NCBI RefSeq assembly: GCF_028641065.1
Contig: NC_073411.1
Location: 10,912,001 to 10,976,000 of the forward strand
Direction of reading: 5' to 3'
Length of the DNA stretch: 64,000 nucleotides
Source: Leucoraja erinacea
Taxonomy: Eukaryota
Shown in pieces: positions 4,301 through 59,100 of the stretch. The position numbers and the translations under genes are program-made. Below the pieces are notes generated by a model. That model was not told the origin of the DNA and did not search any database. It saw nothing but the letters and a program-made list of their open reading frames with translations. The first letter of the stretch is position 1. Each line of letters starts with the position of its first letter.

Positions 4301-7300
4301 TTATAACATTAAACTCCGCAGAAAGGGGACTACCAACCAATGAGCCTACAAATCTGTACGTGTTTGAAGTGCGGGAGGAAACCATCTCGTATGTGTATGT
4401 GGCGAATAAACTTGACTTGACTTCACAATGCAACACTGCTGTTCTCATGTTCACTTGAGTTTAGTTTAGAGGTACAGCGCGGAAACAGGCCCTTCGGCCC
4501 ACTGAGTCCGTGCTGACCAGTGATCCCCGCACACTAACACTGTCCTGCACACACTAGGGACAATTTGCAATTTTTACCGAAGCCAATTTGATGCGTTCAG
4601 GTAAATTCTTTTTGGCATGCTGAAACATAGTCTAAGGTTATTTTATCCGAAGAAACATCGCCTCTGCTGCAAGTGTTACATATTTGGACAGCCCATGTCA
4701 ACATTGGAAGAGCAACCACAAAACACGCAGACTGATACAGAGATAGCGGGGAAGGAGATTTAATTAGCCTTGTGGTCCATTTGAACCTCAGCTGCAACTT
4801 ATGTAACACACAGGCCTTCGACAAAAGCCATCTTAACAAGAGTGGAATAAACCAGTTTGGCCACAGATAAACAAGTTAAAAATATACCGAAAAATAATAT
4901 TAAAAAAAATTGTCATTCATTTGACTGCACATTCCATGCCAAGGCTCGTTTTGTCATCGAAAATACTGGCCAAAACACTAACAGATTTATCCACTTTGTT
5001 TTGAGTTACATCCAAGTAAGTGAATATAAATTCCTTTTTAAGTACATGTTGAAAGTTTTACTGAAATGTTTCCCTCTCTCTGTCCTGATGCCCCCTAAAA
5101 CAAACCCTCAGGACTAAACACACAAGGGATAATATTTGACTGTCAAATGGGCTGCACACATCAGTGGACCTTCTTACAATCTCAAGTTACTGCACCTCAT
5201 CAACCCATCCAGTGAAAATTCCACTGTGTCTCGCTAACAAGCAACAAAAGCCTTGCTGAAGCATCAAAACAAGTTAAACTTTGCCAGGCAAGTCTTGACA
5301 GTCAGAGGAACCTTTAAGCGCCACGTTAGTTGAGCGGCCTGTGGAGAATTTCAATTAGTTGTATTATGTACAGAGTACAATCCCCTTCAGCATTGCTGGG
5401 GAGGACTGGCAGCCTGCCAGCTTCAAGCTGACTTAAGCGAGGCGCAAGGACATGCAACGTTTATGCCTGCACGTTGGAATAAAAGTGGGTCCAAAGTACT
5501 TTGAAAATAAGTGCTGGAAGGAGGAGGAATGTTTGGTGAGACGTCTCATTGTAAAACATCCCAAGCCGCTTCTCAGGGCTGCAAACGTCCAAACCGGTTT
5601 CTCGAGGTTAAGAAGCTGAAGCAATAGGCAGTAGAAAGATATTAAATATGATACGATAAAACATTATTTTTCCCAAGAGGGAAATTGAGGGATGTGCAAA
5701 GATTGGGGAGGGAGGGGTGCGGGGGGGAATTCTGTCTCAGTCTACCCCACGACAGAAAGGGTAGGTTGTAAAGTTGTAAATGCTGGAGCAACTCAACAGG
5801 ACAGGCAGCTACTCTGGAGAGAAGGAATGGGTGATGTTTTGGGCAGTGATCCAGATTCAGTCTGAAGAAGGGTCTCGACTCGAAACGTCGCCCATTCCTT
5901 CAGTCCGGAGATGTTGCCCGTCTGGCTGAGTTACTCCGGCATTTTGTGTCGGCCTTCGGTGTAAACCAGCATCTGCAGTTCCTTCCCACACAGGATGTTC
6001 TGACACAGCTTTATCGGACTTGTGTTAGGCAGCATTTGTGAGGACACATTGTGTACAGTTCTGGTCGCCCCATTACAGGGTGGATGTGGAGGCTTTGGAT
6101 AGGGTGTAGAGAAGGTTTAACAGAATGATGCCTGGATTAAGGAGCATTGGCTACAGGGAAAAGTTGGACAAACTTGGAATGTTTTTTCTGGAATGCTGGA
6201 AGTTGTAGGGAGAGCGGACAGAAGTATGCACAAATTATGAGGGTCAAACGTCGGGTAGATGGGCAGAATTTTTTTTCCCAGGATGGAAAACAATCAAATA
6301 CTAGTGGGCATAATTTTTAGGTAAGATGGGGAAAATGTCAAAGGGGATGTGTGGGAGAGTCTTTTTACAGAGGGTTGTGAGTGCCTGGAATAAATTCCAT
6401 GGGTGTTGGTTGAGGCAGATAAACGAGAATGGCATTTAAGAGACAATAGGTGCAGGAGTAGGCCATTCGGCCCTTCGAGCCAGCACTGCCATTCAATGTG
6501 ATCATGGCTGATCATCCCCATTTAAGAAACTTTTGGATAGGCACATGGATAGGTAAGGAATGGAGGGATATGGATTATTTGCATGCAGAAAAAATGTGAT
6601 CTTGGCATCATGTTCGGCACAGACATTGTGGGCCGAAGGATCTGTTGTGCCCTCATCTCTGTTCTATGAGGGACATTCTAAATAACTGAAAATGATTTTA
6701 AATAAGCAGTCTGAAAGAGGGCCTCGACCCGAAACATCACCTATTCCTTCGCTCCATAGATGCTGCCTCACCCGCTGAGTTTCTCCAGCATTTTTGCCGA
6801 CCTTAAATAATCCCTGATGAGTTTCGGAGTAACCTTGGGGGAGTAAGATTAGCTACATTCAAAAGCTTTCAAAACATATTCATTAGTAAATTTGCACCCA
6901 AGTGCTTAATTACTGGAGCCTCACGAACAAGCAATTAATGGATATTCCCAATGGTGATTAATTTATCTTCAGCGCTGGTTTATTTCTAGAGCAACAATGA
7001 ACCAGTGCAAGATATCACGGAAAACTATTTGGCAACATAAACTCCAATTCCAAATTGCACACAAGCAAAGATCATAGGTGAGTAATGAACAGATCCCTGG
7101 AGAATCTCAGTGGGTCAGGCAGCATCTGAGGAGGGAAATGGATGGAGGACAGTTCGGTTCAGGACCCAAAACATGTCTCGAGACACAAGGAACCGCTGAT
7201 GCTGCTGATGCTGGAGTAACTCAGCGGGACAGGCACTCTGGAGAGAAGGAATGGGCGACGTTTTGGGCCGAAGTCTGAAGAAGGGTCTTGACCCGAAACG

Positions 7301-8060
7301 TCACCTATTCCTTCAGTCTGAAGAAGAGTCTCGACCTGAAAAGTCACCTATTCCTTCTCTCCAGAGATACTGCCTGTCCCGCTGAGTTACTCGGGCTTTT
7401 TGTGTCTATCTTCGGTTTAAACCAGCATGTGCAGTTCCTTCCTACACATCTCCATTACAAGACACAGCATAAGAATCTAGGCTGGTGTTTGAGTGGAGGT
7501 TGGGTTTCTGACTGACTCTAAGAAAGAAGACAGGTCATGTTGGCAAGGTACTGTGCAAGCACTTTCATTTTTATGGGACTCAGTGGGGAGTGACTGCTAG
7601 CTGACTGCCTCATTAATGATTCAAAGCCATAAAAACAATCTACCAGGAAGAGGGGAACCATCAGACATAATGGGAAACCACGGGAAAAGCAATCGAAGAA
7701 AGGATATTAATTTTGAAGGTGGGAGCATTTATTCAGTAACAGTAGCCAGTGGTGCAGCAGGTAGAGCTGCTGCCTCACAGTGCTAGAGACCCTGGGTCAA
7801 TGCCGACCGATCTCAGATGCTGCCTTTGTGGAGTTTGCACGTTCTCCTTGCGACCACGTGGGTTTTCGCCGAGTGCTGTCTCCTCACACATTCCAAAGAC
7901 GTGCAAGTTTGCATGTTAAGAGGTCCTCTGTAAATTGGCTCCAGTGTGGAGGGTGTGGATGAGAAGGTGGGATAACATTGAACGAGAGTGATCGGGGGTG
8001 AGTAGTCAGTATGGACCCGACTTGTTTCCTAACACTTTGGCCATATCGCTAACGCTTCTT

Positions 8061-8791
8061 CTTGACTTTAGGAGGGCACATCATCCGAGGACGTACACTC
8101 CATTGAGTATAAATGGGGATCCAGTGGATAGGGTGAACTGTTTTAAATATCTGGGAGTCCACATCTCTGAGGATATGACATGGTCATCACACGCCTCAGC
8201 ACTGGTGAGTAAGGCAAGGCAGCGCCTTTACCACCTCAGGCAACTGAGGAAATTCAGAGTGTCTCCGAGGATCCTCCAGTGCTTCTACGCAGCGGCGGTG
8301 GAAAGCATCTTGTCCGGGAACATTACCATCTGGTTCGGGAATTGCTCTGCCAAGGACAAGAAGGCTCTGCAGAGAGTAGTGCGTTCGGCCGAACGCACTA
8401 TGGGAACTTCACTCACCCCCCTGCAGGAACTATACAACAGGAGGTGCAACTCCAGAGCAAACAAAATCATGAGAGACCTCTTCCACCCCTGCAACGGACT
8501 GTTCCAGCCGCTACGGTCAGGCAAACGCCTCCGTTGCCATGCAGTGAGAACGGAGAGGTTGAGAAGGAGTTTCTTCCCAGAGGCAATTCGGACTGTAAAC
8601 GCCTTTCTCACCAGGGACTAACTGTACAGAACGTTTTTCCTTCTATTATTTATTATGTAAAATAATATGTGTGTTATGATTGTGTTTATAATTTGTTTGG
8701 TTGTTTTGTTGTTCCGCGAGCATTGCCACTTTCATTTCACTGCACATCTTGTATGTGTATGTGACAAATAAACTTGGCTTGACTTGACTTG
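8061..8791 (+). mobile_element. Rex1/Babar-clade LINE, 5'-truncated 3' end
   Basis: RT C-terminus FKYLGVHI..KARQRLYHLRQLRKF..VESILSGNITIWFGN..SFFPEAIR, followed by a 3' UTR and (CTTGA)n tail. Confidence 0.88.
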
Positions 8792-11700
8792 TCGAGTCCC
8801 CACACAAGATTAGAAGTTGTTCACCCAGAGCTGAACACACTTCTTGGCATCTGCACACAATGGTGTCCGGCTTGTCGCTTCTTGTGCGTGGTGGCGGGCA
8901 GATTGGTGGAAACAAGGCCTTGAGGTGAACGATCTTTCCTTGACCCCATCTTTAACACTAAACTGAACTAAATAAGCTGTTTCAAAAACTGTTTCTTGGA
9001 CTTTTAGAACTTGGTGCAGCAGTGATTCTTTCAAGCCTTTTTATTTACAGGGGAAAAGTTTGGCACATTAGTAGGGACATTAGTAATCTGCCACAATGGC
9101 ACAAGAACGTGGCACGGTGGTGCAGCGGTAGTGTTGCTGTCTTACAGCGCCAGAGAACCAGGTCTAATCCCGACTCCGGGTGCTGTCAGTACAGCGTTTG
9201 TTCGTTCTCGCTGTGACCACAGGGGTTTTCACCAGGCGCTCCGGTTTCCTCCCACACTCCACAAAAGACGTACAGATTAGTAGGTTAATCGGCTTTGGTA
9301 AAAATTGTACATTGTCCCTAGTGTGTGTGTAGGATGGACTCAGTGGGCCGAAGGGCCAGTTTCTGCGCTGTATCTCTAAAGTAAACTAAACTCAAAACCT
9401 CATACTGAAGATAGACACAAAATGCTGGAGTAACAGCGGGTCAGGCAGTATCTCTGGAGTGAAGGAATTGGTGACGTTTTGGGTCGAGACCCTTCTTCAG
9501 ACTGCTCATACTGACAACTGTCAAATGCAGTGGGCCTGAACCACACTAACAGAGGTGACCTGATGCAGGAGTGAGCCAGAGAGAGTTGTTTATGAAGGAA
9601 CTGCAGATGCTGGTTTAAACCGAAGATAGACACAAAATGCTGGAGTAACTCAACGGGACAGGTAGTATCTCTGGAGAGAAGGAATGGGTGATGTTTCGGG
9701 ACGAGACTGAGTCAGGGGGAGAGGGAGATACGGAGACAAGGACGTGTCAGGTGTGAAAACAAGACAACAGCTCAAGAAGGAACTGCAGATGCTGGAGAAT
9801 CGAAGGTAGGCAAAATTGCTGGAGAAACTCAGCGGGTGCGGCAGCATCTATGGAGCGAAGGAAATACTCGTATTTCCTTCGCTCCATAGATGCTGCCGCA
9901 CCCGCTGAGTTTCTCCAGCAATTTTGCCTCCCAGCAATTTATCTCTGTTTGTTTTATTGTTACCTTCCCCAAGCCAACAATGATCAGTGCCCGCTTAATA
10001 ACATACAACCTAACTGGTCCTGTATGCCTGAGATCTGAGGAAGGGTCTCGACCCGAAACGTCACCCATTCCTTCTCTCCAGAGATGCTGCCTGTCCCGCT
10101 GAGTTACTCCAGCACCGTGCGTCTATAGCCAGAGAGGGCAACAGCGGAGCTGGGCCAATATAACCGCCAGTTTCACTGGGAATAATGTTTACTCTCACGG
10201 CTTCTTGACCTTGGATCTGTGTTCGTCATTGGCCGGACAAGAAGCCTTAAAAAGGTTTTAGTTCACAGCTCTTCAAAACCAGCGAGCCGTACGCGAGGTG
10301 GAGATTGTTTACCAACAACCCTCAGTGTCATAGAGGAGCAGTGTTTACAGTTAAGAGAAACATAGAAAATAGGTGCAGGAGTAGGCCATTCAGCCCTTCG
10401 AGCCAGCACCGCCATTCAATATGATCATGGCTGATCATCCAACTTAGTATCCTGTACCTGCCGTCTCTCCAAACCCCCTGATCCCTTTAGCCACAAGGGC
10501 CGCATCTAACTCCCTCTTAAATATAGCCAATGAACTGTGGCCTCAACTACCTTCTGTGGCAGGGAATTCCACAGATTCACCACTCTCTGTGTGTGAAAAA
10601 AAAATGTTTTTCTCACCTCGGTCCTAAAAGATTTCCCCCTTATTCTTAAACTGTGTGACCCCTTGTTCTGGACTTCCCCAACATTGGGAACAATCTTCCT
10701 GCATCTAACCTGTCCAACCCCTTAAGAATTTTGTAAGTTTCGATACATGCTTTAGTTAAATCTCAGGTCAAGGGAACTTCACGACTTTACAACACCTGGT
10801 TTGGATTTTTTCGCCTTAATTTCAAGATTCAAGAGAGTTTATTGTCATGTGTCCCTGATAGGACAATTAAATTCTTGCTTTGCTTCAGCACAACAGAACA
10901 TAGTAGGCATGACTACAGAACAGATCAGTGTGTCCATATACCCTTATATAAATATATACACACACACACATGAATAAATAAACTGATAAAGTGCAAATCA
11001 CAGATAATGGTCTATTAATGATCAGAGTTTTGTCCGAGCCGGGTTTAATAACCTGATGGCTGTGGGGAAGTAGCTATTCCTGAACCTGGTCGTTGCAGTC
11101 TTCAGGCTCCTGTACCTTCTACCTGCTAAGTGAGATGATTTTGGAGAAAGCGATCTTTGTCGCTTTCATTTACCTGACAGATTTAACAGTGAGCTTCTAG
11201 GAGATGGGGAGAGCAGTTGGGAGTCCTGGTGTCACATAGGGGTGAAGCATAAATCCAGGCCCTTTCACCCATCAACCATCCAGCACCCATCTACACAAAT
11301 ACTAGATCATGTGGCCATAAGAAATTGGAGCAGTTAGGCCATTCGGCCCGTCGAATCGTCCATTCGATCACGGCTGATCTATCTTTCCCTCCCAACCCCA
11401 TTCTCCTGCCTTCTCCCCGTAACCGTTGGTGACCGTACTAATCAAGAACGTATCAATCTCCGCTTTAAAAACACCCAATGACTTGGCCTCCACAGCCGTC
11501 AGTGGCAATGAACTCCAAACATTCACCGAGAGTCAAGAGCGTTTTATTGCCAAACTTACCGATATGGAACATTAAAATGTCCACTTGCAGCAGCACAACT
11601 GATATGTAAACCGATATATACTCTGCAAGCACCATAATGAACAAAAAATAACTTCAGTATGCCCCCAAGTATATGTAGTTCAGAGCTTATTTGGAGGTCG

Positions 11701-12339
11701 TAATCAAGTCTGAAGAAGGGTGTTGGCTCGAAACGTTGCCTATTTCCTTCGCTCCATAGATGCTGCTGCACCCGCTGAGTTTCTCCAGCACTTTTGTCCA
11801 CCTTGGAGGTTGTGATGCTTACTAACCTGATGGTTCTCTGGCTAAAGACGTCCATTCTAAAGGTACATCCTTTTATTCTGAGACTGTACCCTCTAGTTCT
11901 AGACTCTCCCACTACTGAAAACATCCTCTCCACATCCACTCTATCCAGGCCTTCAGTAGGTTTCAATGAGAACCTCTCCCGCCCCCTCATTCTTCTAAAC
12001 TCTAGCGACCACAGGCCCAGAGCCTTCAAACACTCTTCATACATCAACCCAATCATCCCCAAGATTATTCTTGTAAACCGCCTGAGTATGACATCAATCC
12101 CATTTGTATATAAATACTTCCCCACATTCTTACACACAACCTTCGCCCTCCACCATCACTGCCCAGATTATACAACACACCCACACACTCACGACAATGT
12201 ATCGTGACCAATCATGCTACCGACCCACACGGGTTTTGCGATGTGGCATGGAGCCAGAGGCCCTGGAGGAAGCCCACAGGGTCACAGGGAGAACGTGCAA
12301 ACTCCACATAGACAGCACCTGAGGTCAGTGCAGAACCTT

Positions 12340-13019
12340 GTGAACTGTTTTAAATATCTGGGAGTCCGCATCTCTGAGGATATGACATGGTCATCACACG
12401 CCTCAGCACTGGTGAGTAAGGCAAGGCAACGCCTTTACCACCTCAGGCAATTGAGGAAATTCAGAGTGTCTCCAAGGATCCTACAGTGCTTCTACGCAGC
12501 GGCGGTGGAAAGCATCTTGTCCGGGAACATTACCATCTGGTTCGGGAATTGCTCTGCCAAGGACAAGAAGGCTCTGCAGAGAGTAGTGCGTTCGGCTGAA
12601 CGCACTATGGGAACTTCACTCACCCCCCTGCAGGAACTATACAACAGGAGGTGCAACTCCAGAGCAAACAAAATCATGAGAGACCCCTTCCACCCCTGCA
12701 ACGGACTGTTCCAGCTGCTACGGTCAGGCAAACGCCTCCGTTGCCATGCGGTGAGAACGGAGAGGTTGAGAAGGAGTTTCTTCCCAGAGGCAATTCGGAC
12801 TGTAAACGCCTTTCTCACCAGGGACTAACTATACAGAACGTTTTTCCTTCCATTATTTATTATGTAAAAGAATATGTGTGTTATGATTGTGTTTATAATT
12901 TGTTTGGTTGTTTTGTTGTTTGTCTTTTGCACAAAAGTCCGCGAGCATTGCCACTTTCATTTCACTGCACATCTCGTATGTGTATGTAACAAATAAACTT
13001 GACTTGACTTGACTTGACT
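12340..13019 (+). mobile_element. Second, near-identical Rex1/Babar LINE 3' fragment, nested in an HE1-type SINE
   Basis: Almost the same peptide and UTR as 8061-8791; (CTTGA)n tail; the SINE sequence resumes after the tail. Confidence 0.88.

Positions 13020-16053: not shown

Positions 16054-16083
<30 letters not shown>
16054..16083. repeat. (ATA)n microsatellite
   Basis: Direct inspection. Confidence 0.9.
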
Positions 16084-16085
<2 letters not shown>

Positions 16086-17601: not shown

Positions 17602-17700
17602 TACTCCATCTACAAAGTGGTGAAGCAGGTTTACCCCAACACTGACATCGCTTCAAAGGCCAGGAATATCCTGAATACCTTTCCTAATGATACCTGGAAA
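17602..17700 (+). pseudogene. Decayed histone H2B-like fragment
   Basis: Translates YSIYKVVKQVYPNTDIASKARNILNTFPNDTWK versus H2B [35 protein letters not shown]. No start codon, N-terminal tail or C-terminus. Confidence 0.75.
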
Positions 17701-20223
17701 ATGGTCATCATATTCCAATGCCTTTATCTTTGATGTCCCTTTTCAACCAGTGCGTTGAAAGCTATCGTTTGAAAGAAAGACAGCTAAAGACACCTTATTT
17801 ATCCACTCTGCTATTTCATAAGTGATAGGAACAGAATTAGGCCATTTGGCCCAGCAAGTCTACTCCGCCATTCAATCATGGCTGATCTATCTTTCCCTCT
17901 CAACCCCCATTCTCCTGCCTTCTTATACATCGGCTGGTAAGTTTAGAAGTTTAGTTTTAGTTTAGAGATACAGCGCGGAAACAGGCCAAATATCTGGACC
18001 GTAACTAAGGAAAATAAAAAAATGCACAGTGAATGGCACGCTCAAAATGAGCCAAATGTTGGGCTGGTGAGAGCAACAAGCGAGTCACACCTTCACACCT
18101 TGTGAGATGTGAGGGTCCCGCCATGGACTCTGCATCGGGTCCTCGCCTTTCAGCACGGAAGTCCCTGATGCAGACCCTGGGTCAAAGACATTTACAGATC
18201 ACAATCAATCCAATTGATTAGATTGGAAGGTTTCTATTAGATTGGAAGGAAGGACTTGCCATCGCCCGGTGGGGTAACAACATCGGAGGCCTGGATCGCC
18301 TCAGCGCAGGGGGAGAATAAGGAGGGAAGAGGCAGAGACTTTAAGGCTTTTGCCTCCATCACAGTGAGGAGTTGCCTGGTGAACTCACTGTGGTGGATGT
18401 TAAATTTGTGTTATTGTGTGTTTTGTTGTTTGTTATTATATGTATGACTGCAGGCAACGAAATTTCGTTCAGACCAAAAGGTCTGAATGACTAATAAAGG
18501 AATCTAATCTAATCTAATCTAAGATAGGGGACCCGACGTGGGGGGGACTGCCGTGAGGGGGGGGGGAGAACAAAGGGGACCTGACGCGGGGGGAATTTGT
18601 GGCCCTTTAAGGGCGACTATCTACATACCTTGGGTACGCAAGCATAGAATTTCGCTGTGACTCGTCACATATGACAATAAAGAATTCAATTAATTCCCAA
18701 AGTATTATATCCTCAACTCGGTCAAGCACAAAACAGCGGTCGGAAAAATAAAGTGAGTTTGGAATTTTCTGTTTATAGCAGTCCACAACTGTGTCTCTTT
18801 ACATACAAGAGAAAGCTTTCAATGCTACTCCAACTAAAAAACCCAATCGAAACTAACTGACACACACAATGCCCTAACTATCTCACTCGGCGAGCCATTG
18901 AAAGTGCAACACCAGGAAGAGAATATGCGACGAAACAGCTGCCAAAACAACCACATATCCAAGTGCCAAATGGCAAGAGAAATTCACAGCGGGTTCCAAA
19001 GAAAATAGCTGTGGAGAAATTCAGCGACAAATACAAACAAAGAGAAAACATGCAGTTAACTGGGAGGTCAGAAATAAACCCTCAGCATCACATGTGGACA
19101 CTAAATGCTGGAGTAACTCAGCAGGACAGGCAGCAACTCTGGAGAGAAGGAATGTGTAACGTTTCGGGTCGAGACCCTTCTTCAGACTTTCTTCCCTCAA
19201 CACCGCACGTGCCAGACCCAATGCTCAAAGACTTAACATGAGGACTTTTGAGAGCACTATGACATATCTCACACAGCTTCTCAATTAACCAAATGCAATG
19301 ATTAACAATGACGGCCTTTTTACTTCAAGTCTTCCTGAGTTGGCGATACTGCCGGCACGACCTTCTTTCAACCACAACACATCCAGGCCTGGATAGAGTG
19401 GACGTTGGAGAGGGTGTTTCCACTAGTGGGAGATTCTAGGACCAGAGGTCACAGCCTCAAAATTAAAGGACATTTCTTTAAGAAGGTGAATAGGAATTTC
19501 TTTAGTCAGGGGGTGGTGAATCTGTGGAATTCTTTGCCACCGAGGAGGCCGGAGCACCAGGGGGAAATCCACGCGGTGATAGGGAGAACGTGCAAGCTCC
19601 ACATGGACAGCACCCGAGGTCAGGACCCGTGTCAGGTCTCTGGCTCTGCGAAACAGCAGCTCTACCCGCTGCGCCACAGTGTTCGCTGGTCGGGCTGTGG
19701 CATCCACATCTCGTCAGGAATAAACAATGGTTCACATTTACTACAGCACAGCCAGAGGCCATGTGGCCGAGACATCTGTACCAGTAGTTACGTTCTACAC
19801 GAGCCTCAACATTTTGCTTCATCGCACCCTCTGCACAGAGCTAGCTGCCCAAGTCCCAGGTGAAACACAGGCAGAGGCAGAGAACAAACAATGCCTGCAA
19901 CTAATTAGCATCCAGCACCCTCCCACACGCACCCAATAATGGGACAAGTGAAACATGCATCGGGCAAAGCTGTAATCACAGCCAACAAAACGTAACCAGC
20001 AACTTCCCACCCACATTTACAGAGAGCGGCCCAACATATTGTTGCGAAACCTCAAAGCCAATGTGGTTGCAATGAGGTTTAAAGGTGATAATTCTCAGCT
20101 CATCCAGCAATCTTCGCCCATGTCTAGGAAGGAACTGCAGATGCTGGTTTAAATGGAAGATAGACACAAAAAGCTGGAGTAACTCAGCGGGATAGGCAGC
20201 ATCTCTGGAGAGAAGGAACAGGT

Positions 20224-20845
20224 TAGAATGTCCTTCCTCAAATTAGGGGACCAAAACTGCACACAATACTCCAGGTGTGGTCTCACTAGGGCTCTGTACA
20301 GCTGCAGAAGGACCTCTTTGCTCCTATATTCGATTCCTCTTGTTATAAAGGCCAACATGCCATTTGCTTTCTTCACTGCCTGCTGTACCTGCAATGCTTA
20401 CTTTCATAGACTGATGTGCAAGGACCCCCAGATCCAATTGTACTTCCCCTTTTCCCAACTTGACGCCATTTAGATAGTGTTCAAGAAGGAACTGCAGATG
20501 CTGGAAGATCGAAGGTACACAAAAACAACTCAGTCTGAAGAAGGGTTTCGGCCCGAAACGTCGCCTATTTCCTTCGCTCCATAGACGCTGCTGCACCCGC
20601 TGAGTTTCTCCAGCAATTTTGTGTACCTGCCATTTAGATAGTAATCTGCCTTCCTGTTTTTGCTACCAAAGTGGATAACCTCACATTTATCTGCATTAAA
20701 CTTCACCTGCCATGCATCTGCCCACTCCCCCAACCTGTCCAAGTCACCCTGCATTCTCATAGCATCCTCCTCACAGTTCACACTGCCACCCAGCTTCGTG
20801 TCATCTGCAAATTTGCTAATGTTACTTTGAATCCCTTCATCCAAA
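20224..20845 (-). mobile_element. CR1 RT fragment interrupted by a Penelope-derived fold-back insert (20479-20628)
   Basis: ISKFADDTKLGG..LQGDLDRL-type RT motif; target duplication gccatttagatagt. Confidence 0.85.
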
Positions 20846-33241: not shown

Positions 33242-33490
33242 GAAGGTAGACAAAAATGCTGGAGAAACTCAGCGGGTGAGGCAGCATCTATGGAGCGAAG
33301 GAATAGGTGACGTTTTGGGTCGAGACCCATCTTCAGACTGATGTGGGGGTGGGGTGGGGGGAAGAAATAAGGAAGAGGCAGAGACAGTGGGCTGTGGGAG
33401 AGCTGGGAAGGGGAGGGGATGGAGGGAGAAAGCAAGGACTACCTGAAATTGGAGAAGTCAATGTTCATACCGCTGGGGTGTAAGGCAAAC
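33242..33490 (-). mobile_element. Penelope-like 3' end: ORF terminus (HPSGMNIDFSNFR*) contiguous with the abundant short repeat
   Basis: Shows that the dispersed 'gctggagaaactcagcggg..cccttcttcagac' repeat is the PLE 3' UTR/pLTR. Confidence 0.8.
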
Positions 33491-34802
33491 ACACCATGAG
33501 CGTAGAGGTAGCTGTCAGAGGCACCCAGCTTTATGTGAGCATTTACGGTGTGGATCTGTGGCAGAGTTGCTGCCTTACAGCGCCAGAGACCCGGGTTCAA
33601 TCCTGGCCGCGGGTGCTGTCTGCACGGAGTTTCCCTGTGATCGCGTGGTTCCAGCTTCCCCCCACACTCCAAAGACTTACAGGTTTGTTGGGCAATTGAC
33701 TTCCTCAAATTGTAAATTGTCCCTAGTGTGTAGGATGGTGCAAGTGTGTGGGGTGATCGCTGGCCAGCGAGGACTCGGTGAGCCGAAGGTCCCGTTTACG
33801 AGCTGCATCTCAAATGTTTCAGGCAATATTATTATTTACTGGTACACAAAAATGCTGGAGAAACTCAGCGGGTGCAGCAGCGTCTATGGAGCGAAGGAAA
33901 TAGGCAACGTTTTGGGCCGAAACCCTTCTTCAGACTGAAGGAAATAGGCAACGTTTCGGGCCGAAACCCAGAAGGGTTTCGGCCCGAGTTTCTCCGTTGC
34001 CTATTTCCTTCGCTCCAAAGATGCTACTGCACCCGCTGAGTTTCTCCAGCATTTGTGTACCTTCAATTTTCCAGCATCTGCAGTTCCTTCTTAAACATTA
34101 TTATTTACTGCTTTTGTTCTCGCACTACTTCAATTGAAGATCAGCCATGATCACATTGAATGGCGGTGTTGGCTCGAAGGGCTGAATGGCCTCCTCCTGC
34201 ACCTATTGTCTATTTGTACAAATTCATCATCTCGCATTCGTCAGAGTTAAATTCCATCTAGCAATGCTCTCCCCAACTTTCCATCCGATTCATATCCTGA
34301 TGTAGCCTCAGACAACCTTTCCCACAACCGGCTAACTATTGTGCCATCCACACACATAATACCTTCGACGTGTGTCCTATCTTTGTTACTAGAAGCCTTT
34401 AGAATATTGGTGTTTGAATAATTCCGAGTTGGCCTTGCCCGTTAAGATGTGCTCCCGTTGTGAATGTACAAAGAGTCGGAGAAACGCTGCACGGAATAGT
34501 GAAAAACCTGGATAGAGTGGATGTGGAGAGGATGTTTCCACTAGTGCAAGAGTCTAGGACCAGAGGTCATATCTTCAAAAGGTCATTCCTAGAGAAAGGA
34601 TGAATTTCTTTAGTCAGAAGGTGGTGAATCAGTGGAATTCATTGCACACAAGGCTACGGAGTTAATGTGCAGGGGTTGCTGGTTGGGGCAGACTCGTTGG
34701 GCCAAAGGGCCTGTTGTCTCACTGTATCTCTAAACTAACAAGCCATCGTTCTTTTGGACAGGAACAAACCAGAGGCAATTCCACTGAAGATGAACTGAAG
34801 AA

Positions 34803-44122: not shown

Positions 44123-47100
44123 CTGTAATGGAGACAGTCGCGGTGAACGTCTAGGTGACCCGGAAAGCAACGACCCGCTACTCCCTGGGACGCCCGAATG
44201 TGACCACCATGCCCACATCTCCAACCTCTATCCATGAACCACCCTCCCCGCATCTCCAACCTCTCTCCATAGACCACCATGTCCACATCTTAAACCTTTC
44301 CTCCGTGACTCCCGGCAGCCTGACCAAGGGAGATGGTGGGGAAAAAACTGAACCCAAGCAGGCTGCAGACCATTAGGAGAGAAGTGTTTAAGAGGGAACT
44401 GCAGATGCTGGAGAATCGAAGGTTACACAAAAAAGCTGGAGAAACTCAGCGGGTGCAGCAGCATCTATGGAGCGAAGGAAATAGGCAACGTTTCGGGCCG
44501 AAACCCTTCTTCAGACGTCTGAAGAAGGGTTTCGGCCCGAAACGTTGCCTATTTCCTTCGCTCCATAGATGCTGCTGCACCCGCTGAGTTTCTCCAGCTT
44601 TTTTGTGTAACCATTAGGAGAGAAGTCTCAGGGGAAGAGAACACCACGGCTCCTCTGAATGTCCATAGTTTAGTTAAGCTTGGAGATCCAGCACGGAAAC
44701 AGGCCATTCGGCCCAACACCGACCTTCGATTTGAAAAAATATTTTTTTAGAGATGCAGGGTGAAAACAGGCCCTTCGGCCAGCGATCGCCCCATCCCCGG
44801 GCACCATCCTACACACTGGGGACAAATTACAATTACAATTTACAGAAGCCAATTAACCTACAAACCTGCAAGTTGACAACATTCTTCCTGGAGCAGGGTG
44901 ACCAAAACTGGATAGAATACTCCAGATGTGGACTCACCAACGTCTTGTACAACTGCAACATAATATTCCAACCTCTATACTCACTACCCTGACCGATGAA
45001 GACCAATGTACCAAAAGCCTTCTTGCCCACCCTATCTATCATTGACTCAACCTTCAGAGAACTATGTGCTTGCACTCCTGTACCCCTGTGCTCTACAACA
45101 GACCCCAGGGCTCTGCCGTTCACTGTGAAGGTCCACCCCTGGTTTGACTTCCCAAAATGCGACACCTTGCACTTATGCGGACAGTCCGCATGTGGAATAT
45201 TGTGTGGGAAGCAACTGCAGATGCTGGTTGAAATCGAAGGTAGACACAAAATGCTGGAGTAACTCAGCGGGGCAGGCAGCATCTCCGGAAAGAAGGAATG
45301 GGTGACGTTTTGGGTTGAGACCCTTCTTCAGATTGATGTCAGGGGAGTGGGCGATCCATCCCCTCCCCTTCCCGGTTCTCCCACCAGTCTTACTGTCTCC
45401 GACTACATTCTATCTCTGTGCTGCTCACATGCGTGTCAGGGATTAGGGCTAGTCTCCTTCGACCGGTCCGTTCACAAGCTACTAATATCTGAGGAACCGG
45501 AAAAAAGGATACCCTGATGATATTTCTACTATGATTGGTTCACATGCTATAACCAATCTACAAGTCTGAAGAAGGGTCTCGACCCGAAACGTCACCCTTC
45601 CCTGCTCTCCAGAGATGCTGCCTGTCCCGCTGAGTTACTCCAGCATGTTGTGACTGCCGCCCAACATGTCCACATGTGCACTGCCATGTGCGTTGAAACT
45701 GGGAAGCTAGACAAGTTACTGGGAACCTGTACATCTGTACCTGGGCTGCCTCCGGTGACATACGTTGACGATGCACTTGACCCCAGCCATGAGGAAATGA
45801 ATGAAGGAGATCAGTATGGTCCAGACGCCTTCCATGAAATGTCTACTGCAAGGCACCAAGACATCGATACTGCGTTATTTACCAGACACAACCCTCCCCC
45901 TCAGAACATTCCCCGCAGTGTCTCCTGCGCGGGAACGTCCTTTTCCCGAAACTCCTAACCCTGGAAGAGGATAATCAAGGTCTCCCCCACTGGCCACAGC
46001 ATTGGAGCTGGATTATTTGCTTAAAGCCGACTGGATCTTCTCACTGGGTGAGAGACATAAGCGACTGCAGATGCTGGGATCTTGGAGGAACTCAGCGGGC
46101 CAGGAAGTATCTGTGGGGAAGTGCGCAGATGGCGTTCTGGGTACAGGCCTTTCCTTGGACTGGAAGGACATTGCGCAGTGCTAGCAAGTCCGGGTACGGA
46201 AACTTGAAGAAAACTTCCTCAAAGAGTAGGGCATCCATTGGAATCATAGAGGGGAAGCAGTGGGAGGGAACTCATGTTGGAGAGAGGAGGAGGACTTCTT
46301 CAAAGTGGGAACACTTTTGAGGAGATTTCATAGAGCTGTTGAAATCTGGAGAAAAATACGACACAAAGTGCTGGAGGAACTCGGCATGTCAGGCAGCATC
46401 CGTGGTGGGGAATGGAAAGGTTATGATTCGGGTCGGGACGTTCCTTCAGACTCCCACTGAGGGACTGGGTCACGGGGTCACGAGAACCCACCCCAAACTC
46501 TGTGGGCAGACAGCCAATGTCTTCATACAGTGGCTTATGTGGGCGCCAAAGGTTATCGGGAGAAGACAGGAGAATGGGGTTGAGTGGGAAAGATAGATCA
46601 GCCGTGAAATGGTGGAGTAGACTTCATCGGTCGAATGACAGAATTCTGCTCCCATGACTTATGACCACAGTTCTCTCCGATCCGAAACCAGTCAAAGAAA
46701 ATACTTGGAACAAATGAGGAAGTATTTTGCGTTCCATGCAAACCCCGGCCCCCGGCCTCCAAAGATGTCATGACACAGAGGCAATCTCTTCACAAAAGGC
46801 AGCAGTGGTTGTAGGAATGGCTGGACCCCTTGGCATGGGCAGGTGGGCAAAGGTAGTAAAACGCGAGTGGGACCCTTGGCTTGTAAACAAATGGAAAGTG
46901 CCCTCTGAGTTCCCCCAGCACTCTGGGTGCAGAAAGCATGTGAAGGAATCGAAAGGCAGACCGGGTAGGATTTTGTGTGGATCAGGCGCGTCCCACTCAA
47001 TAACTCACGTGGATCTCTTCTCCGCATTGATCGGCAGTTCTGTTCCTGTGATCGCTCGTCTGGCCCTCCGAATGACCGCAGCTACAGTGTAGAGGTTGTC

Positions 47101-50100: not shown

Positions 50101-53100
50101 CCTCTCATCCTTCTCAGTTCTTTGAAAGAGTGTTCCAAATTATCCCACTTTCTCATAAATTTAAGGAGCAGAATGAGGCCATTCAGCCCATCAAGTCTAC
50201 TCCACCGTTCAATCACGGCTGATCTATCTTTCCCTTTCAACCCCATTCTCTTGCCTTCTCCCCATAACCTCTGACACCCATACTAATCAAGAATCTGTCT
50301 ATCTCTGCCATAAAAATGACATTGACTTGGCCTCCATAGCCTTTTGTGGTAATGATTTTCACAGATTTCCCTCTTAACCCCTTATCCTCTCTTCGCCCCA
50401 TAAGCCTTGACACCCTTACTAATCAAAAGTCTTCTTCATTACTTTCCATTAAGAATGACCTCTTTCCAAATATTTATCTAATTCCGTCATGAACATAGAA
50501 ATATAGAAAATAGGTGCTGGAGTAGGCCATTCAGTCCCAGATGGCTGACCATCCAGAATCAGTACCCCGTTCCTGCTTTCTTCACATAGCCCTAAGCACT
50601 ATATCCAACCCTCTTTTGAATACATCCAATGAATTGGCCTCCACTGCCTTCTGCGGCAGAGAATTCCACAGATTCAAAACTCTCTGGGTGAAAAAGCTTT
50701 TCCTCATCTCATTCCTAAATGGCCTACCCCATATTCTTAAACTGTGACCCCTGGTTCTGGACTCCCCCAAAATGGGGAACATTTTTTCCTGCATCTTTTC
50801 CTGCATCTGTCCAATCCCTTAATAATTTTATATGTTTCTATAAGGGCCCATTTTTCCTTCCAAATTCCAGTGAATATAAGAGCAGTCAATCCATTCTTTC
50901 ATCATATGTCAGTCCTGCCATTCCAGGAATTATCCTGGTAAACCTACACTGTACTCCCTCCACATTACCGGTGGACCTTCTGAGATTGGATGAAATATTT
51001 TACAGTTACTCACTGAGCAAAGTAACAAGCTTCATCGGTAAGCAGGAGCAAGATGTCCAGATTCTGCCTGTGCCATCTCTTCCCCCTGAAACAAGAAATG
51101 AACAGCAAGGGCAACAAAACAATGAAGAGATTGGCAGAAAGGCAGAGAAAGTGCAGCCCCTCAACTTCTGAAAGAAGTGGAAAATGCTGGTGATATTCGT
51201 GAGGTCAGGCAGCAACCGTGGAGAGAGAAACAACCTTTGACTGAAAAGGTTGGAATACCGCCATTGTTTTAAGTTTATTTTAGTTTAGTTTAGAGATATG
51301 GCGCGGAAACAGGCCCTTCGACCCACCGAGTCCGCGCCGACCAGCGGTCCCCACACATTAACACCATCCTGTACTAGGGCCAATTAACCTGCAAGCATGG
51401 ACGTCTTTGGAGTGTGGAAGGAAACCAAAGTTCTCGGGGAAAACCCACGGGGAGAAGGTAAAAACTCCGTACAGACAAGCATCCGTAGCCAGGATCGAAC
51501 CCGGGTCTCCGGAGCTGTAAGCGCTGTAAGGCAGCAACTCTACCGCTGCGCCACCGTGTCGCACAGAGTTGCAGAGAATGGGGAGGGTGTCAAGAGAGTG
51601 AATGGGGGGGTGGTGACCATGAGGGAAAATGGATGACACAGGTTGCCAATGGTGGTGAAGGTATTAAAGGCAACAAATGAGTCCAGTCGAGGTGCAAATA
51701 AGGAAGGATGAAGGAGGGTACAGGAGGCAAGGTGAGGGGATGATAAAGAATACTGCTGCAAAACACAACCAGGTCAGGGAGCATCCTCTCTGGACCAACC
51801 TCGCCCATTTCCCCTTGATCTCTGTCCTAGCATAAACATTCCCCTTCTTCTCTTTATCCCAACCACTCTTCTCTGTAATTTCAAACAAGCCTGCATTCGA
51901 ACCTTTACAATTCTAATGAAAGGTCAGAAACTCGAATCCTCAACTCTATTTCTCTGTCCACAGTTGCTGCTTGATCTGTAATAGTCTGACGAACATGGCT
52001 GTTTCTGTAGGTACAATTCCAATTCCCCTTTAGACTTTAATTTGGCGATTCAGCATGGAAACAGGCCCTGCGACCCACCGAGTGTGCGCCGACCAGCGGT
52101 CTCCCCGTACGCGAGCACTATCCTATACACGTTGTGGCCAACTTACAATTGACAGAAACCAATTTTTACCAAAGCCAATTGACCTACAAACCTGCACGTC
52201 TTTGGAGTGTGGGGGGAAACCGGAGCACCCGGAGAAAACCCACATGGTCACGGGGAGAACGTACAAACTCCGTACAGACAGCACCCGTAGTCAGGATCGA
52301 ACCTGTGTCTCTAGTGCAGTAAGGCAGCAACTCTACCCTGCACCACTGTGCCATCCCTGTGCCGGACTTGATGTCAAGAGGAACTCACTCACTACAAATA
52401 TTTCACACGACACAAACTCGCAGCCATTTTTCCAAAACCCATGGGATTCACTTGAACTTGTAACATCAGCTTGTGGTGGTTTGTATCGACATACAGCATG
52501 GAAACAGGCCCTTCGGCCCACCGAGTCCACACTGACCGTCCATCACCCGTTCACACGAGTTCCATGTTATCCCATTTTCTCATCCACTCCCAACGCACCA
52601 GGGGACGATTTAGAAAGCCGATTAGCTTACAGGCGCTCATGTCTTTGGTATGTGGGAGGAAAATGGAGCACCTGGAGAAAACCCACGCGGTCATGTGGAG
52701 AACGTGCTAACTCCACGAAGACAGCACCCGAGGTCAGGATTGAGGTCAGGGAGGCAGCCATGCCATTGTGCCTCATGTTCACAGTTACAATTGCAAAACC
52801 AACCTCACGTTTTCATCAGGAGACTCATATTCTAAAGTAACTCTGTTAAAAAATATTAGTTTTGGTTCATTTGAGGCTTTTGTCGCCCCTCCCAACTCTC
52901 AGTATCACATCATAAACAGTTTATCTTGCCGCGAATATGACAGTCTTAACTTAACACATTCTCTGTAACACCCTGAACCTAATCTGCTGATATTTTCAGG
53001 CAGCATTTTTGTTCATTAATGAGGCGCAGAATATCACAGAGTGTTATAGAGTCATACAGTGCGGAAACAGGCCCTTCGTCCCAACTTGCCCATGCTGACC

Positions 53101-56100
53101 AACATGTCCCATCTACACTAGACCCACCTGCCTGCGTTTGGCCCATATCCATCTAAACCTGCCCTACCAATGTACTTGGTCATCCAATCAGTCTGAAGGA
53201 GGGTTTCGGCCCGAAACGTCACCTATTTCCTTCACTCCATAGATGCTGCTGCACCCGCTGAGTTTCTCCAGCATTTTTGTGTACCTACCAATGTACTTGT
53301 CTACATGTTTCTAACAATGTTGCGATAGGTCCCGTTAATATCATAGAAACATAGAAACATAGAAATTAGGTGCAGGAGTAGGCCATTCGACCCTTCGAGC
53401 CTGCACCGCCATTCAATATGATCATGGCTGATCATCCAACTCAGTATCCCGTACCTGCCTTCTCTCTATTCCCCCTGATCCCCTTAGCCACAAGGGCCAC
53501 ATCTAACTCCCTCTTAAATATAGCCAATGAACTGGCCTCAACTACCCTCTGTGGCAGAGAGTTCCAGATTGAAATCCAAATCATATTGAAAGAGCATATT
53601 CCCCAATCACTGATATAAAGTAGCATTGCCATGCAAGGCATTCCTAATTACATAGAAAGCTGTGCACCGATGAGCTACTATGTTGAGAAATGTATCCTAC
53701 ATCTTGCACTCTGTATCTTCCCCTTTGCTTTACCTATTGTACTGGAGGTAGACTTGATTGTATTTGTGTATAATGTTATCTGATCGAGACACAAAAAGCT
53801 GGAGTAACTCAGCGGGACAGGCAGCAAACCTGGAGAGAAGGAATGTGTGACGTTTCGAGTCAAGACCCCCATCTTCTGTCCGCAGAACCGAAGCAGGATC
53901 TCGACACGAAACGTCACCCATTCCTTCTCTCCAGGTTTGCTGCCTCTCCCGCTGAGTTAATCCAGCATTTTGTGTCTTTCTTTGGTTTAAACCAGCATCT
54001 GCAGTTCCTTCCCTCGCTCCGCACTGCACCTCGGTATACATGACAATATTAAACTTAAGTCTAATTCTCAACGAAGTATTAAAACACAGACTCTTACTGA
54101 ATACTAATTGCTTCAAAACAATGAGCGTCTGATAGACCTTGGATTACAGCTAACAAACAGCCAGCCTCCCAAGAACGCCTCGGTCAGTGGTATCAGGAGT
54201 GCACTAAAGCTGCTGATTAAAACTTCGATCTCCTGCTTCTTTAGTTTCTGCTGTTCCTTAACGAGCAAAGCTCTTGCGGGCTTCTGCTTTCCGATCAGCG
54301 CCTGGATGTTTATGCTCAATTGAGCCCCGTGCATCAGATCTGTGAGCAAATGGAAGACTACTCGATTACTATCATCGTGCCTGGGACAAAGACAACAAAA
54401 GAACTGCAGAGTTTAAGAAGGAACTGCAGATGCTGGAGAATCGAAGGTTACACAAAAAAGCTGGAGAAACTCAGCGGGTGCAGCAGCATCTATGGAGCGA
54501 AGGAAATAGGCAACGTTTCGGGCCGAAACCCTTCTTCAGACTGATCGGGGGCGGGGACAAGAAAGGGAAAAGGAGGAGGAGCCCGAAGGCTGGGGGATGG
54601 GAGGAGACAGCAGGGGGGCTGAGGAAGGGGAGGAGACAGCAAGGATGTCAGCAGATCTATATCGGTGAGACCAAGCGTAGGTTGGGTGATCGTTTCGCCG
54701 AACACCTCCGCTCGGTCCGCAATAACCAAGCTGACCTCCCGGTGGCTCAGCACTTCAACTCCCCCTCCCACTCCGTCTCCGACCTCTCTATCCTGGGTCT
54801 CCTCCATGGCCACAGCGAGCAGCACCGGAAATTGGAGGAACAGCACCTCATATTCCGTTTGGGGAGTCTGCATCCCGGGGGCATGAACATCGAATTCTCC
54901 CAATTTTGTTAGTCCTTGCTGGTGCTGGAGTAACTCAGCTGGGCAGGCAGCATCTCTGGAGAAGAGAGAACAGGTCGGGACCTTTCCTCAAGCTGAAAGT
55001 CTGAAATCAGGCGGATCGATATTCCATATCTATATTCTCCAGCGATGCTGCCTGACCAACTGAGTTATTCCAGCACTTTGTGTCTATCATTGGTCTGGGA
55101 CCCTGTTGTGTTCGTGTTACGTACTGGCGCCACTGTTAATGTTAAGAAATCAAAGCCATTCCCATGTGGCTGTAGTCCATCCTTGGTTCCCTCTATGAAG
55201 GCAGCTCTGAACCTTCTGCACAGTAGAAGGAATGGAAGGGTGGACTACTGTCTAAATGTGGAGAGCATTCGGAAATCAGAGGTGCAAAGGGAGTGGTGTA
55301 AGATTCCAAATGGGTTCATTTGCAGTTTGAGTCGGTGGCAATGACAGCAATTGCAATTATTTCAAGCATTCATTTCAAGGGGACTTGAATATAAAACCCA
55401 GCTGAAGCTATATCGGGCGCGGGTGTGGCCACATTTGGAGTATTGTGAGCAGTTTTGGGCCACGTAACTGAGGAAGGATGTGTTGGCTATGGAGAGGGTC
55501 CAGAGGAGGTTTACGAGAATGATCGGGGGATGATTGAGTTAATGTACGAGGAGGGTTTAACGGCACTGGGCCCGTACTCCCTGGAGATAGAAGGATGAGG
55601 GGAAGGGGGGTGGGGGGGGATCTCATTGAAACATACCAAATGGTGAAAGGCTTCGATAGGGAGGACATGGAATGGATGTTTCCAGTCATGGGAGAGTCTA
55701 GTACCAAAGGGCGCAGCCATCAGAATAGAGATGAGGGGGTATTTCTTTGAACCAGAGGATGGTGAATCGGTGGAATTCATTGCCACAGACGGCTGTGCAG
55801 GGCAAGTCATTAACGCAAAGATTGGTAGGTTCTTGATTAGTAAGGGTGGCAAATTGGCAATGGTTAGGGGGGGAGAAGGCAGGAGAATGGGGTTGAGAGG
55901 GAAAGATAGATCAGCCATGACTGAATGGCGGTGTAGACACGATGGGCTGATTAGCCTAATTTTGCTCCTATCACATGAACACGAGTCTTTCCGTGAAAAG
56001 CCATCTCAGCAGCCACCCTGTCACCCCCCCACCCCCACCCCCACTCCCCCAGGTTCTTACATGTTTGAATAAGGACATCCTTATTGTTCCAAACTCCAAG

Positions 56101-59100
56101 CTCACAGACAAGGGTCCTGGCCCCTGTGCAGAACTAGGCTGCCAACACCAGGTGTACAGGCGTTGAAATAGGATGTGGTGGAAGGGGGGGGGGGTAGAAA
56201 GGTGCCCAGGTCCTTAAGTTATAGGAGCAGAATTAGGTCCATTCAGCCCATCAAGTCTATTCCGCCTTTCAATCATGGCTGATCCATCTCTCCCTCTCAA
56301 TCCCATTCACCCGCCTTCTCCCCGTAACCCCTGACACAGATACGATTCAAGAACTTGTCCATTTCTGCCTTGACAATTTCCATTGACTTTGCCTCCACAG
56401 CCGTCTGTGGAGATGCATTCTACAGATTCACCACCCTCTGGCTAAAGATATTCCTCCTCATCTCCTTTCCAAAGGCCTCCTTTCATCGAGCCAGCACCGC
56501 CATTCAATATGATCAGATTCAGATTCAGATTCAATTTTAATTGTCATTGTCAGTGTACAGTACAGAGACAACGAAATGCATTTAGCATCTCCCTTGAAGA
56601 GCGACATAGCAAACGATTTGAATAAAAAAAATAATAAGTGTCCGGGGGGGATGTGGTGATTGGCAGTCACCGAGGTACGTTGTTTAGTAGAGTGACAGCC
56701 GCCGGAAAGAAGCTGTTCCTCGACCTGCTGGTTCGGCAACAGAGAGACCTGTAGCGCCTCCCGGATGGTAGGAGGGTAAACAGTCCATGGTTGGGGTGAG
56801 AGCAGTCCTTGGCAATGCTGAGCGCCCTCCGCAGACAGCGCTTGCTTTGGACAGACTCATGGCAGATCATCCAGAATCAGTGCCCCGTGGCTGCCTTCTC
56901 CCCATATCCCTTGATTCCGTTAGCCCCGAGAGCTCTATCCAAGTCTCTCTTGAGTACATCAAGGGCAATGCTGTACAGAGTGCCCAGTGAGATGGGTCAG
57001 CAGGTCCCCTCACACCAATGTCTACTATTGATAGGGAACCCTGGAGGTAGGAAGCGTTGGCCTCAGCTGCGTACTCACCGATCACAGTCTGCCTGTACGC
57101 GTGTCTGAAGTGGTGGAGGTAATATCTGTTGGCCGATCGACAACCATCCTTCATTGCCCCCGAAAATTTACTCTCTCCGGTTCGAGTGAAGTCACTCTAA
57201 CAAAACAAGCAACACATTTTAGAAACATGGAAACATAGACAATAGGTGCAGGAGGAGGCCATTCAGCCCTTTGAGCCAGCACCGCCATTCATTGTGATCA
57301 TCCCCAATCAATAACCCTTCTCCCCATATCCCTTGACTCCACTAGCCCCTAGAGCTCTATCTAACTCTCTCCTAAATCCATCCAGTGACTTGGCCTCCAC
57401 CGCCCTCTGTGGCAGGGAATTCCACAGATTCACACAACTCTCTGCGTGGAAAAGTTTCTCCTCATCTCAGTCCAAATGGCCACAGATTCACAACTCTCTG
57501 TCTGGAAAAGTTTCTTCTCATCTCCCAAATGGCCACAGATTCACACAACTCTCTGGGTGGAAAAGTTTCTCCTCATCTCAGTCCCAAATGGCCACAGATT
57601 CTCACAACTCTCTGGGTGGAAAAGTTTCTCCTCATCTCAGTCCCAAATGGCCACAGATTCACACAACTCTCTGGGTGGAAAAGTTTCTCCTCATCTCAGT
57701 CCCAAATGGCCACAGATTCTCACAACTCTCTGGGTGGAAAAGTTTCTCCTCATCTCAGTCCCAAATGGCCACAGATTTTGTCTTAGTACACTGATGTCTT
57801 CTGATATTAAACATAACAAGAACACGGAGTCAACGTGTCCCTTGCTCTCCCATATCTAGCCCCTAGACTGTGGACCAGCATCCCTCTTCCCATCAGAACT
57901 GCCCCCTCCATCGACTCCTTAAAGTCGAGACTTAAAACTCATCTTTACTTTCAAGCCTTTCTTGACGTCCTCTGAGGGAGGCTATATGTATGTATTTATG
58001 TATGTACTTAATCTATGAACTAATGTTGTATAACGTTAGTACCTCCACCAATGTAAAGCATTTTGGTCAACGAGAGTTGTTTTTTAAATGTGCTATAGAA
58101 ATAAAAGTGACTTGACTTGACTTGACACTCCGCTAAGACAACAGCTGATCTTTTAGCTCAGTCCCACAGCCCTGCACTAACCCTCTGGCCCCTTAATCCT
58201 GTAGTACCTGAAACGCTAAGGGTTGGGATGAACTTCCATCACGTTCTTTGAAACTGAGCCAAGAGGCTATTCTTTGGGGGGCACAGTGATACAGCGGGTA
58301 GAGCTGCTGCCTCACAGCGCCCGAGACCCGGTTTCGATCCTGGCGATCTGAAGAAGGGTCTCGACCCGAAACGTCACCCATTCCTTCTCTCGAGATGCTG
58401 CCTGTCCTGCTGAGTTACTCCAGCATTTTGTATCTCTCTTCGATTTAACCAGCATCTGCAGTTCCTTCCTACACACATTCATCTTTGGTTCCTTCTATGT
58501 GTAATTTGTATGTTCTCCCTGTGACCGCGTGGGCTTGCTCCGGTTTCCTCCCACATTCCAAAGATGTGCGGGTTTGTAGGTTAATTGGTTTCCTTGAGAA
58601 TTCGCGCAGGCATGTAGAATAGAACTTGTATATGGGTTATTGCTGGTTGGCATGGACTCGATGGGCTGAAGGGCCTGTTTCCATGCTGTATCTCTAAACT
58701 CCGCTGACTAGATAGCAGCAGCAAAAAAGCTTTTCACTGTACCTCGGCACACGTGATAATAAACTAAACTTAGCCTATAAATCTGTACGTCTTTGGAGTG
58801 TGGGAGGAAACTGGGCATCCTGGAAAAAACGCACGCAGCTCATGGCACCCGTAGTCAGGATCGAACCCGGGTCTCTGGCGTAGTAAGGCAGCAACTCTAC
58901 CACTGCGCCACTGTGCCGGCCTCTGATGATAGTCAGTGTAAACACCATTTCCATGCTGGATCACTCTAAGAAATATTGCAGGGCAGAAGGTGGAGCAGTG
59001 GTAGAGTCGCTGCCTTTCAGCGCCAGAGACCCGGGTTCGATCCTGACTACGGGCGCTGTCTGTACGGAGCGTGTACATTCTCCCCGTGAACTGTGTGGGT

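Follow-up and report, generated by a model that had tools for sequence, protein, structure and literature searches.

The 64,000-nucleotide (nt) stretch analysed here (the window) covers positions 10,912,001 to 10,976,000 of contig NC_073411.1 of Leucoraja erinacea. It is strewn with copies of a short repeat which, judged from the sequence, derives from the terminal repeat of a Penelope-like element (PLE) and carries a motif with the order of a hammerhead ribozyme. An initial annotation had given a pattern for this motif, together with seven positions. The exact pattern was matched nine times in the window, at 7275, 10035, 20535, 44519, 45566 and 58348 on the plus strand and at 19158, 44487 and 54512 on the minus strand. 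Six of the seven positions are among these. The seventh, 5862, has one change in stem II (ACTC, leaving a G-U pair) and fails the exact pattern, but passes a structural descriptor. The many minus-strand copies also announced do exist, but just three are exact and 16 are near matches: with up to four mismatches allowed, 31 matches are obtained, 15 on the plus and 16 on the minus strand. All 11 core nucleotides are retained in 16 of these 31; nine of them combine the core with a stem II of 4 bp, a palindromic ACGT and a stem I of 2 bp. By BLAST, 68 pieces of the repeat, summing to 5.8 kb, are found in the window.

In the following, the core nucleotide C3 is position 0 and the predicted cut follows +27. 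The copies and element fragments of main interest are:

5862..5889, plus strand: minimal hammerhead with intact core, a G-U pair in stem II and a stem I of 2 bp, facing an inverted piece head-to-head
7275..7345, plus strand: two tandem motifs at a distance of 43 nt; the first is intact, and in the second the ACGT palindrome is broken and stem II has 3 bp
10035..10062, plus strand: motif with intact core and G at N7; stem I is just 1 bp because the copy begins at -1
11710..11737, plus strand: motif retaining core, stem II, ACGT and the 2-bp stem I
19158..19185, minus strand: intact motif
20535..20562, plus strand: intact motif of the UUCG-loop subfamily
33242..33438, minus strand: pyrimidine-rich spacer, motif at 33309-33336 whose core is changed by G12>A, and the element's short 3' end
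33439..33520, minus strand: 3' end of a GIY-YIG endonuclease open reading frame (ORF), stop codon TAG at 33441-33439
44383..44612: young head-to-head insertion with intact motifs at 44487-44514 (minus) and 44519-44546 (plus), both from -2
45566..45593, plus strand: intact motif of the CUCG-loop subfamily
54412..54645, minus strand: inverted terminal repeat with an intact motif at 54512-54539 and a tail
54648..54912, plus strand: GIY-YIG endonuclease fragment of the young subfamily
58348..58468, plus strand: older stub that spans -1 through the end of the tail, with an intact core and a stem I of 1 bp

In the insertion at 44383..44612, the minus arm has a tail of about 35 nt and the plus arm the short end, and a 16-bp target-site duplication surrounds the pair. 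At 7275-7345 and 33906-33990, short duplications fuse the 3' CCTTC of the motif to AGTCTGA, giving closely spaced tandem motifs; in each of these pairs one motif is damaged.

The proposed fold was supported by a comparison of copies. Five subfamilies were set by the downstream flank alone and took in 155 of 298 copies, 143 falling outside any. In all five, the CUGANGA ... GAAA ... UH core is the majority form in type I order and stays unchanged while the downstream flanks differ. The extra base between 9 and 10.1, the G10.1-C11.1 pair and a paired 4-bp stem II are present, and 15.1-16.1 are palindromic (ACGT), without a helix III. The subfamilies differ in loop 2 and at 11.4 (A/G), 17 (C/U) and 1.1 (A/G), each change leaving pairing or cleavability intact; stem II was rightly described as paired throughout, the U-A/U-G difference at 11.4 included. 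N7, which had been taken as variable, is A in 88% of the 298 copies and has the same majority base in all five subfamilies. Stem I consists of only 2 bp (U-A or U-G, then G-C), followed by a mismatch. As for the check with hammerhead models, the sequence-independent descriptor of minimal hammerheads matched 11 sites in the window and had no match in any of 100 dinucleotide shuffles, but an Rfam scan of the window assigned no hammerhead family to it. The 17 Rfam matches at E ≤ 1 were discarded as chance hairpins formed by inverted repeats.

Relatives of the motif were sought in metagenome host DNA, in four of 64 parts, with stem I left free in the search pattern. The core, fixed by that pattern, occurs there amid unrelated flanks, and stem I has 4–7 bp in 66 of 125 matches. 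Among the 106 distinct matches, 49 have a stem I of at least 4 bp, compared with a mean of 4.2 (maximum 12) in 1000 partner shuffles, and several pair types are used. Because this pairing exceeds that of the shuffles, we regard the fold as real and, by its structure as read from sequence, as a hammerhead. A PLE protein match lies beside the motif on the same strand in 19 of the 125 cases and on the opposite strand in three. At four metagenome loci (L302, L346, L348, L365) the same motif is paired on opposite strands, and the inverted insertion pattern seems to be common to other hosts.

The self-complementary ACGT had been thought suited to a dimer, and a nested double-hammerhead structure can indeed be drawn. 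The predicted energies do not favour it: the double hammerhead is put at -7.1 kcal/mol and two free monomers at -16.0 kcal/mol. In the monomer, a rival hairpin which pairs the core GAAGG with downstream CCUUC is the predicted ground state (-10.6 compared with -4.5 kcal/mol for the hammerhead).

In long copies of the element, the endonuclease stop is followed by a C-rich spacer of about 116 nt, the motif, a short 3' end between +92 and +95, and the tail end at about +130. Where copies stand in tandem, the ATG of the next ORF is at +164, and in 15 of 29 ORF-bearing loci the motif lies between the endonuclease stop and the next ORF. Within the window, the motif at 33309-33336 was correctly placed on the sense strand, 102 nt past the TAG, but this very copy carries the G12>A change. 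The long ORFs consist of a reverse transcriptase, a CX4CXXC linker (CNRKRCNTC) and, at the C-terminal end, a GIY-YIG domain; a CX2-5CXXC linker ahead of the endonuclease is a Neptune-clade trait. Partial tandems, inverted 5' copies and a tail of 30–40 bp, as known from endonuclease-containing (EN+) PLEs, are present as well. Of 8,000 scored sequences, 1,544 are homologues of the element protein at E ≤ 1e-30; the protein's closest named relatives are shark and ray proteins (65–68%). For the endonuclease fragment at 54648-54912, a first look at the genome gave 95,312 candidates, of which 150 were scored, with a protein identity of 99–100%. Core order, stem II, the palindromic ACGU and the place after the GIY-YIG stop all fit what had been proposed, and from these sequence features the motif is classed as a type I hammerhead of the minimal kind, situated within a terminal repeat that belongs to a young PLE of Neptune type.

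Exact matches to the 28-nt core number 40,789 in the genome, and its reversed control has none. In a sample of 1.4 Mb from introns of four large genes, picked by CUB-domain matches alone, 578 repeat pieces were found, 262 of them spanning the core and 50 intact by the descriptor (about 36 intact motifs per Mb); intact motifs are about five times denser in the window. Extrapolated to the genome, this amounts to about 0.9 million pieces, 0.4 million covering the core and 80,000 intact by the descriptor.

Where the copies begin and end proved informative. Most are stubs beginning between -6 and +6, at the 5' edge of the fold, and ending 92–95 or about 130 nt downstream. The AGT at -3 to -1 is missing in 15,561 of the 40,789 exact cores (38%), while departure near the cut site is about 1% per base (two of four bases counted). 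Sorted by their neighbours and by how much pyrimidine they contain, 352 core-reaching copies comprise 61 which enter the C-rich spacer, 176 plain truncations, 107 with an inverted and eight with a tandem partner. At ten loci, a terminal run leading from +92-99 or +130 back to its stop is preceded by sequence from +189 to +310, and thus the template reached into the ORF; nine of 40 new stretches, which cover the downstream and not the upstream side, served for the terminal runs only. Splicing at the C-rich tract plus CAG was rejected as a source of the 5' ends, since no GT-AG joint occurs among 15 of 84 joints and target-site duplications adjoin the edge. A genome count of upstream-extended young copies (822 matches) was uninformative, the pattern omitting the commonest young spacer.

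Copies which begin at the 5' edge and end downstream of the motif were likely copied from uncut RNA. We consider it probable that the motif is the hammerhead of a young PLE terminal repeat, that its stubs were reverse-transcribed from uncut RNA and that they do not cut host transcripts. At the two 3'-end positions, the element protein would start reverse transcription internally on the RNA, a mode of priming published for an Anolis element; copying would run back through the uncut motif and usually stop, or switch template, at its 5' edge. The fold would function solely in dimeric form, within a tandem transcript of the element itself, and would probably require the element's protein. The isolated stubs have no partner, a 2-bp stem I and a preferred alternative hairpin.

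The Anolis carolinensis Poseidon element (PAc; Frangieh et al., 2024, PMC11167929) offers a close parallel: in that paper, cleavage is protein-assisted and unprocessed RNA is the main insertion substrate. PAc and our element share two 3' ends about 35 nt apart, a tandem order of repeat, ORF and repeat, copies of uncut RNA and the lack of RNA-seq ends at the cut. Our element differs in its Neptune-type Cys linker and in its ATG, which is not at stem II as in PAc but 164 nt downstream of the core; both 3' ends therefore lie in the 5' untranslated region.

As to the halt of copying at the 5' edge, one candidate answer, which we hold tentatively and rate somewhat below an even chance, is that the edge is the transcription start, with an initiator-like TCAGT and A at -3. 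The stubs would be run-off copies of the first 95–130 nt of the RNA, and long copies would arise by transfer to the downstream repeat. TCAGT is likened here to the initiator consensus. The sharp clustering of 5' ends at -6 to +3 fits such a start, as do target-site duplications of 8–17 bp adjoining the edge in 11 of 60 loci and the template extension into the ORF in the ten jump loci. G is modestly enriched at -4 (1,728 G to 3,203 A/T, a ratio of 0.54, where the composition of the flanks predicts about 0.4); copying of a cap would have this effect. Penelope promoters have been placed in the repeat (PMC2377424, PMC8557442). However, the ends spread over several bases and the G excess is small. 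Further, of 16 ORF-bearing copies reaching +28 in the upstream repeat, 15 extend at least as far as -126, and none has its end at the edge; of the ten jump loci, only four stop at -4 to +6 and four continue to -22 to -108. With similar reserve, we suggest that the stubs may record the first Penelope copying step in vivo: the enzyme would prime inside the RNA at +93 or +130, run off where a capped 5' end lies three bases ahead of the core, and now and then jump forward on its template. If this is true, the start site of the element maps onto stem I of the ribozyme, and terminal repeats and partial tandems are rebuilt without self-cleavage.

It is also possible, if rather doubtful, that the edge is a hot spot of pausing or annealing, where the enzyme stalls at the C-rich tract or a bound protein and the TCAG-N-CTGA palindrome, together with microhomology, fixes the junction. 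The inverted partners of 107 of the 352 copies meet them at the edge, in several cases by a symmetrical joint within the palindrome, and microhomologies are seen at the junctions of duplications and jumps. But half of the 352 are the plain truncations without such a partner, and long copies pass the same sequence unstopped (15 of 15).

That the motif is a dead relic in this lineage, kept only as a protein-binding or promoter sequence, appears unlikely. The 2-bp stem I, set against the longer stems of the metagenome matches, and the lack of any sign of cleavage would agree with it. However, all 11 core bases, the ACGT, a cleavable C/U at 17 and the pairings of both stems are retained in five subfamilies with differing flanks, and helix I of Drosophila virilis Penelope, too, has 2 bp (PMC4209133).

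The initial annotation had further inferred that the dispersed copies are latent cleavage sites in host introns, and the data did not support their importance as such. No strand bias was detected in the 1.4-Mb sample within the four CUB-domain genes: 24 descriptor-intact motifs are sense and 26 antisense (95% confidence interval of the sense share 0.34–0.63), with 134 and 128 core-covering pieces and 282 and 296 pieces in all. Genome-wide, the base just before the cut mismatches the element in 678 copies (52,904 keep it), compared with 485 one base upstream and 629 downstream. Departures were judged no commoner there than one base to either side, and the cleavage site was rejected as a copy boundary. 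Among 30 inspected loci with a 'break at +28', many show no more than a point change, a small deletion or the junction of an inversion. Decay in single copies is equal for core and flank. RNA was examined in three raw runs, possibly from a related species, of which 1–5% each were read (one bulk poly(A), two single-cell). In these runs, no pile-up of read starts or ends was seen at the cut site; reads cross it and run on into unrelated flanks at -2/-3. In the bulk poly(A) RNA, the stub is covered about 2,900-fold per mate direction, and the 5' part of the ORF 1- to 5-fold. A search of RNA data listed no record for this 5' stretch, which was given no weight as evidence. The copies likely stay uncut, as passengers in host RNA.

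Several points weigh against this reading. One of the 29 ORF-bearing copies (L037) has its 5' end exactly at +28, the first base past the predicted cut, which is about chance level, and some template-switch junctions fall at +28 to +31 (L441, L428, L232). The strand test, made on four genes identified by CUB matches alone, excludes strong depletion only. The RNA libraries, being fragmented or single-cell, map ends poorly, and unstable cut products could escape notice. Antisense reads exceed sense reads 2- to 5-fold in the two single-cell runs, which could be due to internal oligo-dT priming. The folding model also disfavours dimers of relatives with a longer stem I (median gap 10–15 kcal/mol, compared with 16–22 kcal/mol here), and energy alone is therefore weak evidence. 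Finally, the Pfam matches of the element ORF, RVT_1 (E 6e-6) and GIY-YIG (E 0.005), both score under the curated cut-off.

It is very improbable that the stubs are nevertheless usable ribozymes which, on meeting in tandem, as nearby sense copies or in a germline with the element's protein present, cut host pre-mRNA and alter gene output. In favour of this, intact motifs are dense in introns and in the window, passenger transcription of the stub is heavy, arrays occur whose motifs are spaced by about 210–290 nt (L232, L435) and dimers of the minimal hammerhead ribozyme (min-HHR) are weakly active in vitro (PMC4209133), but strand bias and RNA end pile-up are lacking, the core decays as fast as the flank, a 2-bp stem I faces a competing hairpin, and the second motif of the close tandem pair at 7275..7345 is damaged.

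The arrays at L232 (C1, about 2.5 kb) and L435 (C9, about 3.5 kb) consist of 12–14 uneven units of repeat plus ORF start (e.g. +31 to +208, -39 to +247), apparently made by repeated template jumps. Some adjacent units hold intact motifs at the spacing just given and are natural dimer candidates, while most units of L232 begin at +31, without the core.

Both the motif and its host element class have been published. Cervera and de la Pena (2014, PMC4209133) described minimal type I hammerheads in Neptune, Poseidon and Xena elements of fishes, with thousands of dispersed single motifs and low activity, as multimers only. Our motif shares with theirs CUGANGA, the extra base, stem II from G10.1-C11.1, GAAA, the palindromic 15.2-16.2, the missing helix III and UH. 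It also shares the place in the terminal repeat, the prevalence of single dispersed motifs from truncated elements and the occurrence of opposite-strand pairs. It differs in its host, a cartilaginous fish, in its helix I of 2 bp compared with 4–5 bp in Schistosoma mansoni motifs, and in copy number, 40,789 exact matches compared with about 9,000 in Xenopus and about 4,000 in coelacanth, which were counted by a different method. Two searched supplements of that paper contain no shark or skate terms, and none of the papers listed by our literature search ties hammerheads to sharks or skates, although a 2026 retrozyme preprint with one chondrichthyan sampled may list the family. The present family is a chondrichthyan representative, very high in copy number and short in stem I. 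Lunse et al. have reportedly observed PLE hammerheads cleaving as dimers.

Neptune-clade EN+ PLEs (Craig et al., 2021, PMC8557442) resemble our element by a reverse transcriptase with C-terminal GIY-YIG, the CX4CXXC linker, partial tandems, inverted 5' copies and a 30–40 bp tail, and our head-to-head inverted pairs and two 3' ends fit the PLE layout published there. The assignment to Neptune is putative, and Nematis elements have a linker motif too. Vertebrate non-LTR (long terminal repeat) retrozymes (bioRxiv 10.64898/2026.07.22.740005) are likewise non-autonomous, hammerhead-bearing pieces of Penelope repeats, to which the few tandem arrays here (L232, L435) may be compared. In contrast, our copies are mostly single stubs of 95–130 nt or inverted pairs, and the array units are uneven and often without core. 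Retrozymes are recognized by tandem units each with a type I hammerhead, whereas only eight of the 352 sampled copies have a tandem neighbour.

If the extrapolation holds, a vertebrate genome tolerates some 80,000 descriptor-intact motifs, with no strand bias in the sampled introns, in keeping with the view that such ribozymes stay silent unless a partner or the element's protein is present. The copy ends also form a large in vivo data set on PLE priming, stopping and template switching, a mechanism so far studied mainly in vitro.

Host exons were mapped in the window as follows:

about 27371-27320, minus strand: GRK4/5/6-type first exon with GT donor
about 37167-37307, minus strand: LSM1 exon, LSM1 exons spanning 36032-37307
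59607-59687, minus strand: probable exon of a SAC-domain phosphatase (E 0.012)
63768-63893, minus strand: SAC-domain phosphatase exon

The copies at 5.9–25 kb and 44–58 kb are probably intronic to these GRK, LSM1 and SAC-phosphatase genes, which the few mapped host exons show only in part. The intact copies would then be mostly antisense to the host gene (six of nine on the plus strand). Pfam RGS and hSac2 gave no match in the window, and a 31-residue GRK piece gave none against representative sequences. The three genes side by side look like a block paralogous to the GRK5-INPP5F and LSM1-BAG4 regions.

Among the other features, a WD40 repeat match below the cut-off (E 6e-4) lies at 51009-51284 on the minus strand, in a frame with no other assignment. 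On the plus strand, 7992-8621 and 12208-12828 are a near-identical pair of 3' fragments from the ORF of another retroelement. A tandem repeat at 57315-57860 holds several reading frames open and appears CR1-like by eye.

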